51,035 nt of DNA from contig NZFU01000034.1 of NCBI GenBank assembly GCA_002689345.1, positions 1-51,035 of the forward strand, given 5' to 3'. Under the pieces are notes generated by a model. That model was not told the origin of the DNA and did no database searches. It saw only the letters and a program-made list of their open reading frames with translations. This stretch comes from Methanobacteriota archaeon. GTDB taxonomy: Archaea; Thermoplasmatota; Poseidoniia; Poseidoniales; Poseidoniaceae. The position numbers and the translations under genes are program-made. Shown piece by piece: positions 1,543 through 46,619 of the stretch; the stretch's first letter is position 1, and the number at the start of each line of letters is the position of its first letter.

Positions 1543-2679
1543 ATGGCATCTTGGCTCGAGTCATATGCGCCTCGTCGATTCAATGAATTGGCGATGCCTG
1601 AAACGATTCAGACTAATTTAGAGAAGGTCGCCGTTCAAGCAAACCCCCCTCATCTGATTTTAGCAGGACCACCCGGTGTGGGTAAGACTGCTGCTTGGCG
1701 GCTGGTAGCGCGTCAAATCTTAGGGCCTTCATGGAAATCGACAACCCACATTCTTCAAGCTAGAGACCTGGCAAAGACCGCCGGGGCGATGAAGAAGTTT
1801 GAAGAATTTCTTAGACCCGAAGGAACATCATCCAAAGACACCCTGGCAGGAAGGTCCTCTTTGGACTCCTTCGACGCTAACCTGACACCCGCATCTGCAG
1901 GCGACACACCGCCCGCCGGTGTTGAAAATAGAGAAGTCCATGGCGGTGAAACCAGTTATGTTTCTCGATTGATAATTATTGAAGACGCAGACCATCTCGG
2001 CCCAACTAGACAACCATATTTGCGCCGAATGATGGAATCAACATCTTCAACATCCCGCTTTATTTTTACAGCGAGATCACCCTCGCGGCTAATCGACGCT
2101 CTACGCTCACGCTCCAAACAGGTTCGCATACCGTCTGCAACAAATCAAATCATCACCAAGAGACTTGAAGAAATAGCAGAAAGAGAGGATTTATCTCCAA
2201 TCAGGGGTATTCTTGGCGATATCGCCCACGTTGCAAACGGAAACTTACGTAGAGCCGTATTCTTACTTGAATTACTTGCTCGTAGAAGGAACTTACACGA
2301 CAGAAAGAATTTGCAAAAGGTAGTATCAGCTACCACACTTGTTGGGGTTCAACAAGTATTGGAAGAGGCATTACGAGGTAGAGTTCACGATTGGCGGTGG
2401 GAGAAACAAGGAGGCCGAAATAAGAGAGTTCTCAAAGGCGCACTAGGTGCTCTTGATCAATTGATGAGTGAGCATGCATTGGAAGCCGAAGATGTAGTTT
2501 CTCACATTCACAGACTACTAACAACAGGACGCCTGTTACTCGATGAATCGGTATTATGTGAATTATTGAGCGCTTTGGCAAGTTGCGATGTCAAATTACA
2601 AACATCGATGCACGGAAGAGTCCAACTCGAGGAATTCCTCCACCAGGTCAAGGAGATATCTTCGGCACAGCCGGTTTAG
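1543..2679 (+). CDS. rfc: replication factor C small-subunit-like AAA+ protein (divergent)
   Basis: N-terminal WLESYAP (RFC box II), Walker A GPPGVGKT, Walker B-like IIIEDAD, ALRSR arginine-finger box, GNLRRA sensor 2. Confidence 0.8.
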   Translation: MASWLESYAPRRFNELAMPETIQTNLEKVAVQANPPHLILAGPPGVGKTAAWRLVARQILGPSWKSTTHILQARDLAKTAGAMKKFEEFLRPEGTSSKDTLAGRSSLDSFDANLTPASAGDTPPAGVENREVHGGETSYVSRLIIIEDADHLGPTRQPYLRRMMESTSSTSRFIFTARSPSRLIDALRSRSKQVRIPSATNQIITKRLEEIAEREDLSPIRGILGDIAHVANGNLRRAVFLLELLARRRNLHDRKNLQKVVSATTLVGVQQVLEEALRGRVHDWRWEKQGGRNKRVLKGALGALDQLMSEHALEAEDVVSHIHRLLTTGRLLLDESVLCELLSALASCDVKLQTSMHGRVQLEEFLHQVKEISSAQPV

Positions 2680-2687
2680 AAAAAGAG

Positions 2688-2761
2688 CGGACACGGCAGG
2701 ATTCGAACCCGCGATCTGCGGCTTAGGAGGCCGCCGCCTTATCCAGCTGGGCCACGTGTCC
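2688..2761 (-). tRNA. tRNA-Arg(CCT)
   Basis: Reverse complement GGACACGTGGCCCAGCTGGATAAGGCGGCGGCCTCCTAAGCCGCAGATCGCGGGTTCGAATCCTGCCGTGTCCG folds as a cloverleaf; anticodon arm GCGGC-CTCCTAA-GCCGC; T-loop GTTCGAATC; no encoded CCA, no intron. Confidence 0.97.
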
Positions 2762-2850
2762 AACCCCTTCGGTGAGGCCCCCTTTCAACAACCTATCGCT
2801 ATCATAAATTATCCAAAAGCCACATACCCTTGCATCTAGTGCCCTAACAC

Positions 2851-4401
2851 ATGAGTGACGCCAGCCCTTCAAAGAAGGTCATTCCTGGGAAAGGCGCTGG
2901 CCTACCTAATCCTTACAGCAAGGATTTTGACAGGGGCGAAGACTCAATTTCTAGTTCATTAGCAGACTATGAATCTGCAGAAGCCCACCGAATTAAGTAT
3001 GGCAGACTGGCATGCAATCCAGCGGTTCTACTAATGCGGCGAGTCGCAGGCCTGCTGATGGCATTAACCGCTCTTGCAGGAGTAGTTGCACCGAATCACT
3101 CCTTGACAAAACCAACATTGATGATATTGCTTTGGATACCAATGCTCCTAATTTCAATCGCGCCAGCATTTATTGCGGGAGAAAGGGGCATGACCGCCCT
3201 CGTTCTTCGCTCATCGTTGTGGAAAGAAGAAGCGATAGTGAAAGGGACTAGAAGAGACATGATGGCTGAGCCGGGGATGGATCGTATCAAAGCAGGATTG
3301 AATGATGTACGCCTGCATAATGCAACAGCATCAATCCTCGCAGCAACATCTCTATTGTTACTAATTTTAGCTGCGGGCTTAGAGCCTAATGGCCTTGCTT
3401 ACAATTTGGTGTTACTAATCACCTTAACAACAAGCCTAGCCTTATCATTCCACGCTATTTTTACTACGGACGATATTAGAAAACTAGGAGACGAATTACC
3501 ATATTTGGTATTACATTCTCCGACACATCATCCGATGAAGTTAGACACTATTTTGGGAGATTTGGTTTATGCGCATTTAGATCCCGACCACTCATTATTG
3601 TGGGATTTGTGGGAAGGGAAACTATCTCATTCAATATTGCCGGGAGTAGATAAAAGACAAGCCAGAGAGCGAATATTGTATTTGCTCCACCTCAATAGCC
3701 GGGGCGATTTAAGCGACGAAGAAACCTTCAACGAACTAAAGGAATTCATCAAACCAATGGCGATTAAGGAATTGTTGTTAGATGCAGATGCCCAGTTTAA
3801 TTGGCCAAGGTTACAACGACTAATCGCACATGCGCGTGCTTGGCAAGTCGAAGTATTCGACTTACTTGATAGATTGCAAAACGACCTACTTTCCGGCTCT
3901 GCAACAATTACCAAAGACGCATGGAGGATGGACATGGCCCTTGCATCCCAATGTAATAATCGAACAGGGCACCTATTCATCGCATTGAATAACCAAGGCG
4001 AAGAAGACAGACATCTTCGCGTTGAAGTTATTGTTCCAGGGGGAATGCCAGAAAACCAAGTCCATCGTTTCGAACTCACTTCTTGTCCGGGGCCCGAGGG
4101 GGCGGTCAAAATCACAGACCCCCTGGTCGAAGATGCATTGGATTGGATGCCAAAATATCTAGAAAAAGGCGTAATTTTGTGGATTGGAGTTGCTTGGGGA
4201 GAGAGTGTTCGCGGAAGGAGAAATGTCCAGGTAATTTTACGAGACGACGACGACACGATTCTAGGATCGAGAATTATTCGAACCGAGGTATTAGCCGGTG
4301 ATAGTAAGCTATCTCGGCAGAGGCTAAAACGCATGCTACAAGCCCGCTCAAAGGGAGAGTCAGATTTGCCAAACTTAGATTTGACCACTATACCAGCATG
4401 A
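2851..4401 (+). CDS. hypothetical membrane protein (about 4 N-terminal TM helices, large soluble C-terminal part)
   Basis: 516-aa ORF with ATG start and hydrophobic segments in the first ~200 aa; no family motif recognised. Confidence 0.75.
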   Translation: MSDASPSKKVIPGKGAGLPNPYSKDFDRGEDSISSSLADYESAEAHRIKYGRLACNPAVLLMRRVAGLLMALTALAGVVAPNHSLTKPTLMILLWIPMLLISIAPAFIAGERGMTALVLRSSLWKEEAIVKGTRRDMMAEPGMDRIKAGLNDVRLHNATASILAATSLLLLILAAGLEPNGLAYNLVLLITLTTSLALSFHAIFTTDDIRKLGDELPYLVLHSPTHHPMKLDTILGDLVYAHLDPDHSLLWDLWEGKLSHSILPGVDKRQARERILYLLHLNSRGDLSDEETFNELKEFIKPMAIKELLLDADAQFNWPRLQRLIAHARAWQVEVFDLLDRLQNDLLSGSATITKDAWRMDMALASQCNNRTGHLFIALNNQGEEDRHLRVEVIVPGGMPENQVHRFELTSCPGPEGAVKITDPLVEDALDWMPKYLEKGVILWIGVAWGESVRGRRNVQVILRDDDDTILGSRIIRTEVLAGDSKLSRQRLKRMLQARSKGESDLPNLDLTTIPA

Positions 4402-4454
4402 GATTTTAGGCGCGTTCCTTATGAAATGCCCACACTTGGCTCTCTCCACCGGAG

Positions 4455-6092
4455 GTGGAGTACTTGGAAGCATGGGACATCATCGTAATCGGAGACGGAC
4501 CTGCAGCATTACGAGCATCAGCGAACGCCGCTAAGGCCGGAGCAAAAGTTCTAATGATGTCATCAGATAGTTTGGGCGCGGGCAATACCGCAGCAATTGA
4601 TGGTATAGCAGCGCCACTGAAAGAAAGTACAACCAAATCTCATCGCGACGATACGATTAGAGCAGGAGGGTTCCTTTGCGACCAAGACATCGTATCACAA
4701 CGAGTTGCTGAAGCCTCCAGACAAGTCGATCTTCTAGAGCGCTGGGGAGTAATATTTCGCCGCGACCAAGATGGTATTCCACTCGTTCGTCGAGCAGCAG
4801 GACACACACTTCCACGCTTAGCAGGAGCAGGGGATGCTTTGATTCGCGAAACGCAACAGGTTCTCGAAGAACAATGTATGAAAAACGGAGTTGTCCGCAG
4901 AGGCGACCAAGTTCCACTTCAATTAGTCCACACCGATGAACAGGTGCATGGTCTGATTTCCTTAGATATGTCTACCGGGGCTGTGAACGCATTACAAGCA
5001 AAGTGTGTGATTATCGCAGATGGCGGCTATGAAGGAGCTTGGACTGGTGTCTCTATTGGATTAGGTGCCGATTTAGCAATGAGAACAGGCCTTGCATTAA
5101 GGGACCTTGAATTTACATCATGGACTCCTTTGGCAGTTTCTGGAACCAATGTAGTATTGCCAATTGGGATGCTTTCCGATGGAGCTACACTTCACCACTC
5201 TAATGGAAATCCAATAGATGTGGAAGATTTTGCAGACACTACTACTCTAGCCAATGCCACCACTTCACAGGGCGTTGTTTTAGATGCCCGGAACATGGGA
5301 GAGTCAGAGGCTTGGTGGGACCAAACATCTGAAATTTTGACGACACGCCTTGGAATTAACATGGCGCGCCAAACAATTCCAGTTAGTGCACAAGTTTCCT
5401 CCACACTGGGTGGAATTGCAACCGATGAATTTGGTAGAGCAATTTCAGGCAAATGGTCTAGATGGTTTACCGGGCTATACGCTGCAGGAGACTCCGCTTG
5501 TTCAGGACTTCATGGCGCAGGAATGGTTGCTGGAAACAGGCTATTAGACGCTTTAGCAGGCGGAGCTGCCGCTGGAGAGCACGCTGCAAATTATGCAGCT
5601 AAAGTGGAATTTAGTGGCCGTGCAGCCTTAGAAACACACCTCGGAGTTGCAGAAGCCGACCTTGATTTCGATATGGCGGGTGCGGAAGAAGGACCGGTCC
5701 AAAGAGCGGGCCCACTATTCGCTAAATTATCTGAAATCATGAATTCCCAAGTAGGAATTTCTAGAGACGAATCAGGGCTTCAAACAGCATTGGAAGAACT
5801 CAACAAGTTAGCAAAATCCGCTGACAAAATGCATCTTGACGATAACACTAGATTATTCAATTCCAACTTACTAGAATCTCTGAGACTCAAGGCAGGAATC
5901 CGCTTGGCTAAGGCGACCGTGCAAAGCGCCCTCTCTAGAACAGAGAGCAGAGGAGCTCATCAAAGAGCAGATTTTGCCGAATTAGACTCAGAACAAATGC
6001 ATCACACATTAGTCGATATCGAGGGAGAGATCTCAACGCTTGCCATACGCAAGGGCGTCTCTGGAACCTGGGTACTTACTCCAGATGCTTAG
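4455..6092 (+). CDS. SdhA/FrdA/NadB-family flavoprotein with degenerate active site
   Basis: DIIVIGDGPAA FAD fold, DTIRAG..DQD, DLEF, GLYAAGDSACSGLHGA and RTESRGAHQRADF all align to succinate dehydrogenase flavoprotein; catalytic residues are replaced (see findings). Confidence 0.85.
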   Translation: MEYLEAWDIIVIGDGPAALRASANAAKAGAKVLMMSSDSLGAGNTAAIDGIAAPLKESTTKSHRDDTIRAGGFLCDQDIVSQRVAEASRQVDLLERWGVIFRRDQDGIPLVRRAAGHTLPRLAGAGDALIRETQQVLEEQCMKNGVVRRGDQVPLQLVHTDEQVHGLISLDMSTGAVNALQAKCVIIADGGYEGAWTGVSIGLGADLAMRTGLALRDLEFTSWTPLAVSGTNVVLPIGMLSDGATLHHSNGNPIDVEDFADTTTLANATTSQGVVLDARNMGESEAWWDQTSEILTTRLGINMARQTIPVSAQVSSTLGGIATDEFGRAISGKWSRWFTGLYAAGDSACSGLHGAGMVAGNRLLDALAGGAAAGEHAANYAAKVEFSGRAALETHLGVAEADLDFDMAGAEEGPVQRAGPLFAKLSEIMNSQVGISRDESGLQTALEELNKLAKSADKMHLDDNTRLFNSNLLESLRLKAGIRLAKATVQSALSRTESRGAHQRADFAELDSEQMHHTLVDIEGEISTLAIRKGVSGTWVLTPDA

Positions 6093-43110: not shown

Positions 43111-44133
43111 ATGGATTTGATTCAGGCGGCTTGGATGATTCGTGATTTGGGCCAGCCAGTCAGTGCCATCCACATCGGTGATGAATCGTCTTTAATCGCC
43201 GGAGGATGGGACGGGGCATTGAAAAAATGGGACAAAGATGGCTCATTGGTTTGGGCTGTTCAATGCGAGGACCGCATTGAAACTATTCTACGAATCAAAG
43301 AATTGGTTATAGTAACATCAGGCCTACACATTACTTGTGTTAAACAAGGAGAAATTCAATGGAGTAATCCATTGGAAGGCTCAGCCGATTTGCTTTGTTA
43401 CCATAATGGACAAATCGTAGCAACCTCTAGCGTTTATGATATTGAACATGGAGATTTTATGGAAAGTGCAATTTGGAAATTTTCTCTAGATGGCGAATTA
43501 CTCGAGGTATCTCGAATGGATGAAAGACCTTGGTTTGTTCAATCTACAAAAAATTTGATTTTTGGACTAGGTAGGCCAAAATGCGGGTTGTTGATAGATG
43601 ACGTCCACCATGAATTATCTAGCAATTCCCCAGTTACTTGTGGAGCATCAAGCCCAGACAATGCCCTGTTTGGACATGCGGACGGCACAATTTCTTCTAT
43701 TGATGGAGTAATCACTAAGGAAGAATCTTCAATCGAATCTTTGGTTTGTACAAAAGATGGCTTTATTGCAGCTCTTGAATCCGGAGTTCTAATTTCTAGG
43801 GGCTTAGATGCAACTGAGATTTGGAGAAACGAAGGCGTACAGATTACAACACAATCTACCGGATTCAATAATTTGCATTGGTGTGGAAGGTCTCAGGAAA
43901 ATTCTGGAATCATTGAAGTGAGAAATATTGCTGGCGAAATAGTTGCAAAAACAAACACAACTCGTCCCAGGGTTTCTACCGCTATTGAAAATAGAGTTGC
44001 TATCGGTTTTGAAGATGGTCAGATTTTAGTTTGGGAAATGGAATTGTTTGAACGCCGCTCAAATGAAAAATCAATAGAGACAGATGGCCGAAGATCTGCC
44101 CTGGCTGCAAAGCTTCGTTCACTACGAGAATAA
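43111..44133 (+). CDS. beta-propeller (WD40/PQQ-like) protein
   Basis: LIAGGWDGALKKW, LFGHADGTI, VAIGFEDGQILVW blade motifs; charged helical C-terminus. Confidence 0.75.
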   Translation: MDLIQAAWMIRDLGQPVSAIHIGDESSLIAGGWDGALKKWDKDGSLVWAVQCEDRIETILRIKELVIVTSGLHITCVKQGEIQWSNPLEGSADLLCYHNGQIVATSSVYDIEHGDFMESAIWKFSLDGELLEVSRMDERPWFVQSTKNLIFGLGRPKCGLLIDDVHHELSSNSPVTCGASSPDNALFGHADGTISSIDGVITKEESSIESLVCTKDGFIAALESGVLISRGLDATEIWRNEGVQITTQSTGFNNLHWCGRSQENSGIIEVRNIAGEIVAKTNTTRPRVSTAIENRVAIGFEDGQILVWEMELFERRSNEKSIETDGRRSALAAKLRSLRE

Positions 44134-44153: not shown

Positions 44154-44206
44154 TTCCAGTGGAACCAGTGGAAACCATGCTCGCAACCCCTCATTTCCGC
44201 TGGAAA
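44154..44206. promoter_or_regulatory. palindromic TTCC-N3-GGAA sites upstream of the putative large RNA
   Basis: TTCCAGTGGAA (44154-44164), second CCAGTGGAA copy (44165-44173), TTTCCGCTGGAAA (44194-44206). Confidence 0.35.
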
Positions 44207-45130
44207 ACAGTCAAAAAAAGCGTAAAGTTTATTTGCCTCCGCTACCCACCTGAATAGTGCCGCTCCACAAGGAGTGGTGGAGGACTTCTTCGGAAAGCCT
44301 CCGGGACCCTTGCCAACCGGCCTGCTCAAACCGAGCAAAGCGTTGGTCACAAACTCTGGAGACAGAGCAAGTGAGGCGACAGGGGAGATTCGAAATCTTC
44401 GGAGATCGAAAGTCCCCACCGCCCACAGGATGATTTGGAGCCTAGGCGAAAAATCAGCTACAGGACTTTCGGGAAATGTAGTACAGGGAGGGCCACAACT
44501 TGTTGTGGAATTACCAATGACTGTGCATTAGCCGGGAGGTGCAATAGTAACAGTTCTTCGGGACAACTTCTGTTGCAATTAACGGCCGGTGAAAAAGTTT
44601 CGACTTGGACACCACGGACGGAAACCGAACCAGGGATGCGACCTTCGGGAAACAAAACTGGAAACGGACCAGCCACGGACGGAAACCGCGCCACATACTT
44701 CTTCGGAAGTGAGTGGAGACGGACCTCCATGGCCGAAACCGAATCTAGGAATTACCTTCGGGAAATTCATAGAAAACGGACGGCTACGTCGGAAGGAAGC
44801 ACGATCACTTCGGTGAAAATGCGGAAAACCAACGACCGGTAAAGAGGAACACAACCTTCGGGAAGTGGAAATCAATACCACCCTGGAAATGGAACACTTC
44901 GGTGGGAAATTAACAGAAACTCGGCCGCCGGGAAGAAGGCAACTTGGAAACAAGCTGTCAACGATCTGGAATTTACTCTTAGGAGTGAAGGAAGGTGACG
45001 ACGACTCGGCAGTCACCAGCGGAGGCTGGCAGGGGGGCGGATATCCCACCCGGATGAAACCCCCCTGCCAGTTCTCCCATCCTGCTTTCACAGGTAATCG
45101 GGTGCCAGTGCGTACCGCTTATGACTGTTG
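44206..45130 (+). ncRNA. large highly structured non-coding RNA of unknown family (~800-925 nt)
   Basis: Nine CTTCGG plus one TTTCGG on +, none of the reverse (CCGAAG); GNRA and CUUG hairpins; G-U pairs valid only on +; long-range closing helices; no credible ORF. Confidence 0.85.
44612..44781 (+). repeat. three tandem ~57-61-nt structural modules inside the ncRNA
   Basis: Exact 16-mer CCACGGACGGAAACCG at 44612 and 44673, variant at 44727; each is followed by a UUCG-capped helix and A(A/G)ACGGAC. Confidence 0.85.
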
Positions 45131-45169
45131 AGGCCCTACTTCTTACCTACAACCACTTTTGTTTAGTGA

Positions 45170-46561
45170 TTATTTTTGTCCGGTCATTTCTTCAGGCCTT
45201 ACCCACTGATCGAATTCCTCATTGGTAAGATATCCTAGTTCCAAAGCAGCCTCTCTCAAGGTTGTACCTTCTTCATGTGCCTTTTTTGCAATTTTCGCAG
45301 ATTTATCATAACCAATATGGTTGTTTAATGCAGTAACTAGCATTAGTGAATTTTCAAGATGATTATTGATTACCTCGCGATTAGGCTCGATGCCTTCAAC
45401 ACACTTTGTCCTGAACGCACGCATCGAATCTGAAAGTATCCTAATACTGTGCAATAAGTTGTGGATCATCATAGGTTTGAACACATTTAACTCGAAATTA
45501 CCTTGGCTGCCACCTATTGTTATTGCAGTGTGATTGCCCATTACTTGACAGCACACCATCGTCATGGCTTCTGATTGAGTTGGGTTTACTTTACCTGGCA
45601 TTATAGATGAGCCTGGCTCATTTGCAGGAAGAGATAATTCTTGTAAACCACACCTTGGCCCTGAGCCTAGCCATCTTACATCATTTGCAATTTTCATTAG
45701 ACTAGCCGCTAATGTGTTTAGAGAACCGCTTGCAGAAACTACAGCATCATGTGCTGCTAATTGCGAAAATTTGTTTGGAGCAGAAACAAATGGCATACTT
45801 GTTTTCAACGCTATGGCCATGGCAACTCTGTTTGCAAATTCGGGGTGAGTATTGAGCCCCGTCCCTACCGCTGTTCCTCCAAGAGCCAATTCATGCAAAT
45901 CCTCCAAAACGAATTCGATACGACGAATATTTGCATCCAATTGTGCAACCCAGCCACTAGCTTCTTGGCCTAAAGTTAGAGGCACAGCATCCATCAAATG
46001 CGTTCTTCCAATCTTTACGATATCGGACCAAGCATCCGATTTTGCTGCAAGCGCGTCCCGTAGATCACTTAGGCTAGGAAGCAGATCGTTAGTTATCGCT
46101 TCAGCACCTGCAATATGCATTGCAGTTGGAAATGTATCGTTAGACGATTGAGCGCGATTTACGTGGTCGTTAGGATGAACTGGAGTTTTTGAGCCTAATA
46201 CACCACCTGCCATTTCAATAGCTCTATTTGCAATTACTTCATTTGCATTCATATTGGATTGTGTACCAGAGCCTGTTTGCCAGACTCTTAGTGGAAAATG
46301 ACCATCAAGGCCTCCCTTAAGCACCTCTTCCGCAGCCGCAATAATTAATTTTGAGACATCAGAATCTAATTGTCCTAAATCAGCATTTACCTTTGCAGCA
46401 GCCTGTTTTAGTATGCCAAATGCACGGATAACACCGCGCGGCATAGTATCATCGCCGATATCGAAATTTATCAACGATCTAGCGGTCTGGCATCCGTAGT
46501 AACGATCAGCAGGAACTTCCAGTTCCCCCATGGTGTCGGCTTCGATGCGCACGTCTCCCAT
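45170..46561 (-). CDS. fumC: fumarate hydratase class II
   Basis: [42 protein letters not shown]; ATG 46561. Confidence 0.97.
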
Positions 46562-46619
46562 GTGTAAGGGGGCGTAGGCGGTTGTCCATGTCCCTTTCCC
46601 TCTAGCAATCGTCAAAGGT

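Follow-up and report, generated by a model that had tools for sequence, protein, structure and literature searches.

We studied positions 44206-45130 of a 51-kb window from an archaeon of the lineage Candidatus Poseidoniaceae, in the order Poseidoniales, also called Marine Group II (by the window, we mean the whole stretch of DNA that was analyzed, i.e., 51,035 nt of contig NZFU01000034.1). This region lies between a gene for a beta-propeller protein and fumC (fumarase C), whose stop codons are at 44133 and 45170, as stated in the original prediction, which was made from the letters of this DNA. It was proposed there that the gap holds a stand-alone gene for a large, structured non-coding RNA (ncRNA), and we agree. 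This is a genuine gene that does not code for a protein; its RNA is structured and evolves under purifying selection, and it is limited to certain taxa. Its conservation is above neutral, its covariation is massive, it has its own promoter, with a transcription factor B recognition element (BRE) and a TATA box, and no family in Rfam matches it. The proposed boundaries need a correction: positions 44206-44257 are promoter and not RNA, and the transcript would run from about 44258 to an oligo-T stretch at 45157-45164. Both of these ends are placed by signals in the DNA. The features of the locus are collected in Table 1.

Table 1. Features of the locus, numbered from the first letter of the window
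Feature	Position	Strand	Remarks
Beta-propeller gene	43111-44133	+	weak match to WD40
Two overlapping cores, TTCCAGTGGAAC and CCAGTGGAAAC, that resemble the origin recognition box (ORB)	44154-44175	+	roughly at -104 to -83 relative to the inferred start; match the core consensus CTTCCAGTGGAAAC
Full ORB-like box with G-string, TTTTCCAGCGGAAATGAGGGGT	44186-44207	-	inverted relative to the first; TTCCAGCGGAAATGAGGGGT at 44186-44205
BRE/TATA-like element GCGTAAAGTTTATTT	44220-44234	+	fixed 49 nt to the 3' strand of P1 in both families
Inferred transcript, ~900 nt	44258-45160	+	start from TATA spacing and onset of conservation; end from conserved oligo-T
P1 hairpin, GCCGCUCC-ACAA-GGAGUGGU	44259-44278	+	most conserved sequence of the RNA family; basis of model R1
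P2 hairpin, UUCG cap (first CTTCGG)	44279-44302	+	6 of 10 pairs compensatory in the genus; found in all RNA-bearing genera
Closing helix P3, 5' strand GACCCUUG	44305-44312	+	partner at 45129-45136; register uncertain in the window
5' domain of covarying hairpins	44313-44586	+	helices 5 and 7-20; most pairs compensatory
Tandem hairpin modules M1-M3	44616-44783	+	CCG-internal loop-variable stem-UUCG-stem-RAAA-CGG; direct repeats D4, D6, D10
Variable UUCG-loop hairpins	44784-44918	+	44805-44816, 44851-44866, 44883-44916; helices 28-32
Three-way domain	44919-45014	+	helix 44923-44935/45002-45014; hairpins 44938-44959 (GAAA loop) and 44962-45000 (includes 44974-44987)
Conserved 3' hairpin	45019-45079	+	GCGGAG-G-12-bp stem-apical region 45038-45059 (loop CCCACCC)-stem-UU-CUCCCA
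Two small 3' hairpins	45081-45094; 45106-45127	+	helices 40 and 41; mostly invariant
Closing helix P3, 3' strand UGAGGCCC	45129-45136	+	UAAGGGUC or UGAGGGUC in most congeners
Oligo-T TTTTGTTT	45157-45164	+	TTT run conserved in the alignment; likely archaeal terminator
fumC (fumarase C)	45170-46615	-	Lyase_1 and FumaraseC_C

A conserved and structured RNA gene

Between 44288 and 44902, the + strand contains nine copies of the motif CTTCGG (at 44288, 44397, 44556, 44643, 44701, 44756, 44808, 44856, and 44897). There is no copy on the - strand inside 44206-45130, and the closest is at 44088-44093, in the propeller gene. Elsewhere in the window there are 31 copies, counting both strands, so about 0.3 copies would be expected per strand in 0.9 kb. 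The nine copies that we observe are very unlikely to arise by chance at that rate (Poisson, ~2e-11), and the local density is about 30 times the background. (The window as a whole has 40 copies on its two strands, as compared to 19 expected from shuffles.) The positions and strand of these motifs, the chance expectation of well under one copy, and a TTTCGG at 44467 were all described correctly in the original prediction. The RNA region also stands out in its composition: its GC content is 0.51-0.53, versus 0.38-0.46 in the flanks, and its + strand has a strong excess of A over T. The z-score of the minimum free energy, relative to shuffles, is -9.4 for the + strand and -4.9 for the - strand. 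Similarly, a covariance model of the 3' hairpin (R2, see below) scores 94 bits on the + strand and 20 bits on the - strand.

Using BLASTN, we found the element once per genome in 33 of the 36 other species that were sampled from the same genus (JBMYVD010000086.1 is a contig from this genus). About 20 of them match at full length, with 72-85% identity, while the rest match in the 5' and 3' parts and not in the middle. In a comparison to 14 congeners, the identity is 0.86 for the 5' part, 0.89 for the 3' part (with peaks of 0.94-0.96), and 0.67 for the middle. In the same comparison, the third codon positions of the propeller gene and fumC have an identity of just 0.44-0.47, and the first codon positions of fumC are at 0.87. 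Because the identity is far above that of the third codon positions, we conclude that this non-coding stretch is under strong purifying selection.

To describe the structure, we aligned the sequences from 27 species of the genus with MAFFT and folded the alignment with RNAalifold, which predicted 217 pairs in 41 helices. Across the 27 species, 93.5% of the predicted pairs are paired, and 110 of the 217 have changed on both sides (491 cells of the alignment); many pairs show three to five types of pair. None of 500 shuffled controls reached any of these measures. If the partners are slid by 1-3 columns, then the pairing falls to 35-44% and the number of compensatory pairs to 33-64. The structure was derived from the same alignment that we used to score it, and this biases the result in its favor, but the margin is still large. 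The six hairpins that were named in the prediction are all present as written, and all of them lie inside helices with compensatory changes.

The hairpins of the 5' domain include 44354-44367, 44375-44423, 44431-44456, 44458-44481, 44493-44508, and 44541-44576, and all 6 pairs in the last of these are compensatory. In the tandem modules, the flanks are invariant (GAAACCG...RAAACGGAC), and the stems covary, as for example at 44691-44716 (helices 26 and 27). The alignment indicates that modules have been gained and lost among species. The variable hairpins that follow are the least conserved part of the RNA, with an identity of 0.51-0.71. In the three-way domain, 5 pairs of helix 33, which is 99.6% paired, are compensatory, as are 6 pairs of helix 34. 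The two small hairpins near the 3' end tell us little about structure because they are mostly invariant.

The large 3' hairpin is nearly invariant within the genus. Across more distant relatives (31 sequences from 13 genera), 98.9% of its pairs are paired and 9 of 16 pairs are compensatory, while slid controls give 44-64%; this alignment was fitted to the model, so these figures lean towards structure. (A cross-family alignment from MAFFT put this hairpin out of register, and we therefore built R2 on one type of hairpin and used the model to re-align the sequences.) The apical loop is rich in C and U in every genus. It is CCCACCC in the family of the window and CCUCC, UCCUCC, CUUCCUUC, or CUCCCCC in other lineages. 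We looked for a pseudoknot partner or receptor for the C-rich loop within the RNA, and its complementarity to the rest of the RNA is not above that of shuffled loops; within the genus it is usually below. This is consistent with a free loop.

The ends of the RNA are joined by the closing helix, P3. It pairs at the same two positions in different lineages with different sequences: most of the genus has GACCCUUG/UAAGGGUC, another family (f3, see below) has CCGCGG/UUGCGG, and a genus with a very short form of the RNA (g22) has GCCCUUGC/GCAAGGGC. P3 happens to be irregular in this particular window. Because P3 covaries between lineages at the same positions, the intervening sequence should be one molecule. 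Among the long-range pairs, only the closing helix is supported, and it is the comparison across families that supports it.

The lack of a credible protein gene, which was part of the prediction, is borne out, but long stop-free frames do exist. The longest over the RNA gene have 170 amino acids (44579-45091, - strand) and 135 amino acids (44435-44842, + strand), and relatives have stop-free frames of up to 268 codons. They exist because the + strand is poor in T. In the alignment of 27 species, 73 of 632 runs of gaps have a length that is divisible by three, i.e., 88% do not. Conservation does not vary with a period of three (0.786, 0.776, and 0.774 for the three base positions), and the four longest frames have no match in Pfam. 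Gene callers may nevertheless annotate these spurious frames (44579-45091 and 44435-44842) as hypothetical proteins in metagenome-assembled genomes (MAGs).

Distribution and relation to known RNAs

To find more distant homologs, we used covariance models: R1 was built from P1 and P2, and R2 was built from the 3' hairpin and then refined to R3. The E-values from these models are rough. (A simple scan of genome contigs for the P1 pattern was too degenerate and gave chance matches, and a scan of viral contigs with a 14-mer was not specific.) We refer to the families of Poseidoniales as f1-f3 and to the genera that we sampled as g1-g25; f3 appears to be MGIIb, where MGII is Marine Group II. R1 has one match per genome in 132 of 251 genomes of Poseidoniales, which represent 15 of the 25 genera. 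Across 301 genomes from 137 genera of the phylum, the credible matches are all in Poseidoniales, and two matches at E ~0.007 are at the level expected by chance. In three genomes from f3 (G087, G219, and G251), R1 has two matches on different contigs, which could reflect a second copy of the gene, a mixture of strains in the MAG, or contamination.

The homologs range from 0.36 to 0.94 kb, a 2.6-fold variation between genera. In the ten genera of f3 that we sampled, the gap between the propeller gene and fumC holds 450-940 nt with the same landmarks. These are P1 in the form UGCCGCUCC-loop-GGAGUGG, P2 with its UUCG loop, and a 3' hairpin that reads GCGGAG-N-[10-12 bp]-apical region-[stem]-CUCCCA. 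The tail has UUAUCAAUCAUUG, where the genus of the window has UUAUGACUGUUG. The RNAs of f3 also have a repeated purine-rich unit of their own, GGACGNAAGGAAGGGGAAGGAA. In g17, the RNA is at the usual site. By contrast, g22 has a 360-nt version on another contig, away from the propeller gene and fumC, that has a TATA box of its own and ends in U6. This version keeps P1, P2, the 3' hairpin, and a perfect closing helix of 8 bp, so it outlines the core of the RNA.

Neither model matches any genome from f2 or from g13-g16, which belong to the same family as the window, and many of these genomes are 92-97% complete. Some of them have an empty site: the stop codons of the propeller gene and fumC are just 10-25 nt apart in g16, in one genome of g14, and in f2. 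In g13, g15, and another genome of g14, other genes lie between them.

The exact 22-mer of the apical loop is present in 74 contigs from marine metagenomes, at least 12 of which end within ~50 nt of the loop. Contigs that end near the conserved 3' hairpin include L350, L355, L362, L366, L372, L375, L380, L393, L412, and L422. Assemblies tend to break inside this gene, probably because its interior is hypervariable among co-occurring strains. We also noticed that in one contig from g11 (L039, or G052:C68), the 3' hairpin and ~60 nt before it occur twice on the reverse strand (12-73 and 349-410), 337 nt apart. In this genus, the 3' domain of the RNA has been duplicated internally and in tandem.

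In keeping with the prediction, the RNA matches no class in Rfam. We compared the window to all 4227 models in Rfam 15, and the only match at the gathering level is a tRNA (2688-2761); in the region of the RNA, there is nothing credible at E <= 10, nor is there a match at E <= 1 in eight homologous loci from another family. What remains in the region and in the homologous loci are scores of 14-18 bits, at chance level, to unrelated short models. The claims that there are no signatures of RNase P RNA, signal recognition particle (SRP) RNA, rRNA, or introns, and that no reverse transcriptase, endonuclease, or transposase is adjacent, stand up as well: Rfam gives none of these RNAs at E <= 10, and no such protein is encoded by the neighboring genes.

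We also considered an expanded RNase P RNA. The model for the archaeal RNA (RF00373) requires at least 84 bits, with CR-I and CR-V of P4 in order, and it does not match the region either at the gathering level or at E <= 10. The region has a GAAAGUCC-like string at 44407-44414 and a ACAGAAAC string at 44912-44919, which is the wrong order for P4. Furthermore, 54 of 61 relatives have a canonical RNase P RNA elsewhere in the genome (~297 nt, 178-242 bits), including 30 of 36 congeners that also carry the RNA that we studied, so the latter is not an expanded RNase P RNA. The assembly of the window (77% complete) lacks a match to RNase P RNA, as the best score is 11.5 bits on another contig; its own RNase P RNA gene is probably on a contig that is missing. 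The model for archaeal SRP RNA (RF01857) does not match the region at E <= 10 or the eight homologous loci at E <= 1, and canonical SRP RNAs from MGII are 305-315 nt (PMC5069720). The Rfam models for OLE, ROOL, GOLLD, and HEARO do not match the region or the eight homologous loci. A group I or group II intron can also be rejected: no intron model in Rfam matches, the RNA lies between two complete genes, and there is no open reading frame for a reverse transcriptase or endonuclease. A search of the full-text literature found nothing relevant beyond one study, by Hou et al. (2016; PMC5069720), which we return to below.

The promoter and the ORB-like boxes

Both in the window and in the genera of f3, the distance from a GAAAGGTTTAT-type box to GAGUGGUG downstream of it is exactly 49 nt. 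The spacer at 44235-44257 has an identity of 0.68, which is below that of the RNA. Given the fixed spacing of the BRE/TATA in both families, the oligo-T at the end, and the relocated copy in g22, we conclude that the RNA has its own gene. The oligo-T is likely an archaeal terminator: the homolog in g22 ends in U6 right after P3. The window's tRNA gene (2688-2761, - strand, 62.5 bits) provides a local example of both signals, as a similar TTTAT-type box precedes it by ~45 nt and it ends in a T5 run.

The two inverted ORB-like elements lie upstream of the TATA box. The archaeal ORB consensus has been given as CTTCCAGTGGAAACGAAAGGGGT, with the core CTTCCAGTGGAAAC (PMC4153887, Table 2), and a consensus for euryarchaea as GTTCCAGTGGAAAC-AAA-GGGGG (PMC1868953). 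The boxes at 44154-44175 (+) and 44186-44207 (-) match both, including the G-string. Their positions are conserved in both families: among 67 distinct loci, 54 have a + core at -92 and 47 have a - core at about -64. Of 2151 control windows, 34 have cores on both strands. Full ORB-like boxes are rare, with about 5 in the whole 1.68-Mb assembly.

The other boxes in this assembly include an inverted pair on contig C33 and one upstream of mcm on contig C20. We also scanned for the upstream palindrome (TTCCANTGGAA); most sites are inside genes, and the only intergenic ones are those on C20 and C33. On C33 (18392-18563), inverted full boxes, CCAGTGGAAATACAGGGG (-) and CAGTGGAAATGGGGG (+), flank a very AT-rich stretch beside a gene that resembles metallo-beta-lactamase/beta-CASP proteins. 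Judging from this arrangement, C33 likely carries the chromosomal replication origin; neither of the orc1/cdc6 genes is on this contig. On C20 (2423-2482), the boxes TTCCAATGGAAGCCAGTGGAGG and CCTCCAGTGGAAATGAAGGGG are ~70-130 nt upstream of the gene for the mcm helicase (2553-4667), and they are elements of the same type as those that precede the RNA gene.

We considered whether the RNA locus itself is the origin, oriC, and rejected this because the locus is GC-rich, lacks an AT-rich element, and is far from orc1/cdc6. In a complete genome (G051), for example, the RNA is at 81.6 kb, while the orc1 genes are at 523 and 622 kb; in complete genomes, canonical ORBs lie beside orc1, hundreds of kb from the RNA. 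The number of orc1 copies is the same in genomes with and without the RNA, and no orc1 paralog co-occurs with it. That the boxes are position-locked to the TATA box suggests control of the promoter rather than an origin. Orc1/Cdc6 is a candidate for the regulator, but we would put this no higher than a plausible guess.

What the RNA may be

We think it very likely that the + strand of 44258-45160 is transcribed separately, from a single-copy gene, into a highly structured ncRNA of ~900 nt that is found in part of the Poseidoniales and serves in trans at the core of a ribonucleoprotein. The last part, taken separately, we hold with rather less confidence, and we would give it slightly less than an even chance. 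Across the family, the RNA consists of a core (P1, P2, the closing helix, and the long 3' hairpin with its C/U-rich apical loop) and an interior of hairpin modules, capped by UUCG or GNRA loops, that are gained and lost between species. We favor the core of a ribonucleoprotein because the strongest selection falls on a compact core, which is still present at 360 nt, because the loop is invariant and exposed, and because the interior resembles an expansion. If so, then the RNA would act in trans, its activity or the site that binds a partner would be located in the conserved core, and the modular interior would be a structural expansion or a platform for binding several proteins. Its promoter is probably controlled via the two position-locked, inverted boxes, perhaps by Orc1/Cdc6 or by a similar winged-helix protein. 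The original prediction spoke of a machine or scaffold, which is an inference about its role. A bolder version is that this is the first large “ornate” class of RNA in archaea, either a lineage-specific ribonucleoprotein core or an RNA that is itself active, whose synthesis is tied to the cell cycle by Orc1/Cdc6 and whose C-rich loop recognizes a partner or a target. We consider this combination speculative and would not bet on all of it.

Several observations weigh against this picture. First, the RNA is absent from 10 of the 25 genera that we sampled, several of which have genomes that are more than 92% complete. So it is dispensable for the order and is not a universal housekeeping RNA, and the description of the locus as part of the core genome was not correct for the order. 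Second, neighboring genes give no useful clue to a protein partner: these are the propeller gene and fumC or, in g22, thioesterase-like and TerB-like genes. Third, the copy in g22 has no ORB-like boxes, and in some lineages the boxes are degenerate. The locus has no AT-rich unwinding element (there are ~20 AT-rich bases upstream, and the flanking 1 kb is a local maximum of GC), and the RNA is not near the orc1/cdc6 genes, which we found on contigs C27 and C15. Fourth, three runs of RNAalifold gave three different sets of long-range helices other than the closure, without covariation within the genus. Finally, the 5' strand of P3 has a rival partner, predicted at 45100-45106, and this pairing is possible, although it does not covary.

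The RNA may already have been glimpsed. Hou et al. (2016; PMC5069720) used differential RNA-Seq of Red Sea metatranscriptomes and reported Thalassoarchaea ncRNA 1 (Tan1), an abundant orphan ncRNA of 229 nt from MGII. Our RNA could be the full-length form of Tan1, or could contain it. Tan1 is not in Rfam, has a complex structure, and was the fifth-ranked RNA in the RNA-Seq, and its homologs, which are 75-79% identical, come only from fosmids of Thalassoarchaea; and because the same study assigned the RNase P and SRP RNAs separately, Tan1 would be a third structured RNA from MGII (PMC5069720). The obvious difficulty is the length, 229 nt as compared to 360-940 nt, but if the reads came from a diverged population, then only the conserved ~200 nt at the 5' or the 3' end would attract them. 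We see the identity with Tan1 as a serious possibility, though we lean against it. If it is true, then the family was partly known, and its expression in situ has already been shown.

Another idea is that the RNA is a sponge, i.e., that its modules titrate many copies of a single RNA-binding regulator, in the manner of the bacterial RNAs CsrB and RsmZ, and that the core merely gives stability. This would explain the tandem modules with invariant flanks and covarying stems, the changes in their number between species, and the repeated purine-rich unit of f3. When we looked for a shared motif, we found three to four modules with shared flanks in the window, but the motif is not common to the families. 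Also, the 360-nt RNA of g22 keeps the core and has no obvious array of modules, the strongest constraint is on the core and not on the modules, and there is no candidate protein. So we think that a sponge is unlikely.

We are more skeptical still of two other ideas, which seem about equally improbable. The RNA might assemble with itself into a multimeric cage or lattice, as ROOL and GOLLD do, with the modules as struts. Those RNAs and OLE have a similar size, a similarly ornate design that is rich in hairpins and tetraloops, and no known linked protein gene. On the other hand, there is no homology to them, and a 2.6-fold variation in length fits poorly with a fixed, closed assembly. Or the locus might be linked to replication, as a secondary origin or a control point that is bound by Orc1/Cdc6, with the RNA helping to start replication or to control its start, for example through an R-loop or by binding Orc1. 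It is true that the boxes match the consensus, are rare in the genome, recur at the likely oriC and upstream of mcm, and keep a fixed position ahead of the RNA in two families. But the locus lacks an AT-rich element and is the most GC-rich region around, the canonical ORBs are beside orc1, the g22 copy does without boxes, the copy number of orc1 does not depend on the RNA, and the locking to the TATA box points to control of a promoter.

Cis-regulatory and coding readings are unlikely. The RNA might be a long structured 3' untranslated region of the propeller gene, or a barrier between convergent genes, and in nearly all lineages it does follow the propeller gene directly, is read from the same strand, and has convergent genes on its two sides. 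Nevertheless, there is a conserved promoter between the stop of the propeller gene and the RNA, the copy in g22 is elsewhere, and genera in which the propeller gene and fumC abut do without the RNA, so we find this very hard to believe. We can dismiss the idea that the region encodes one or more small or unusual proteins, or is a decayed gene or mobile element: stop-free frames are present on both strands, but they are not kept, they show no codon periodicity and no match to Pfam, the compensatory changes are of the type seen in RNA helices, and there is a single, syntenic copy of the element.

Marine Group II archaea, which are uncultured, rank with the most abundant archaea of the surface ocean. 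An RNA of 0.4-1 kb that is as constrained as the first codon positions of fumC points to an unrecognized part of the cell biology of MGII. To our knowledge, archaea have no large, intricately folded RNAs apart from rRNA, RNase P RNA, and SRP RNA. What is new here is the full extent of the RNA, its distribution, and its architecture, while the first sight of it may have been Tan1 in 2016. The family offers natural experiments, as the RNA is present or absent between sister genera with empty sites, and the minimal version of 360 nt defines the core. A secondary structure that is backed by covariation is well suited to structural work in vitro, and the ORB-like boxes open the regulation of the promoter to direct and cheap biochemical tests.

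It may help to compare the RNA and its locus to better-known systems. Like archaeal origins, the locus has inverted boxes, which agree with the ORB consensus down to the G-string; unlike them, it has no AT-rich element, is not beside orc1/cdc6, and has boxes that are locked in position to a promoter. The RNA resembles CsrB and RsmZ in that it has hairpin modules in tandem, which share a short motif and differ in number from species to species, but it is about three times larger and has a strongly conserved core that is not repetitive. (We know of no CsrA-type partner in archaea.) Like archaeal RNase P RNA, it has a closing helix, many hairpins, and GAAAGUCC-like and ACAGAAAC strings. Like Tan1, it is an orphan structured ncRNA of MGII that lies outside of Rfam, and from the published description, on which this comparison rests, Tan1 may be a fragment or a relative of it; Tan1 differs in being 229 nt and in being reported only for Thalassoarchaea (MGIIb).

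Finally, OLE, ROOL, and GOLLD are large “ornate” orphan ncRNAs that are found in bacteria or carried by phage. The RNA that we studied does not match them, and it differs in having an archaeal host, a hypervariable and modular interior, a 2.6-fold range of lengths, and a promoter with BRE/TATA and ORB-like boxes. Yet it falls into the same size class (0.4-1 kb), has many conserved hairpins and tetraloops, covaries strongly, is spread patchily within a restricted lineage, and, like them, has a function that is not evident from its sequence. So the resemblance to OLE, ROOL, and GOLLD is an analogy of kind rather than a matter of membership.

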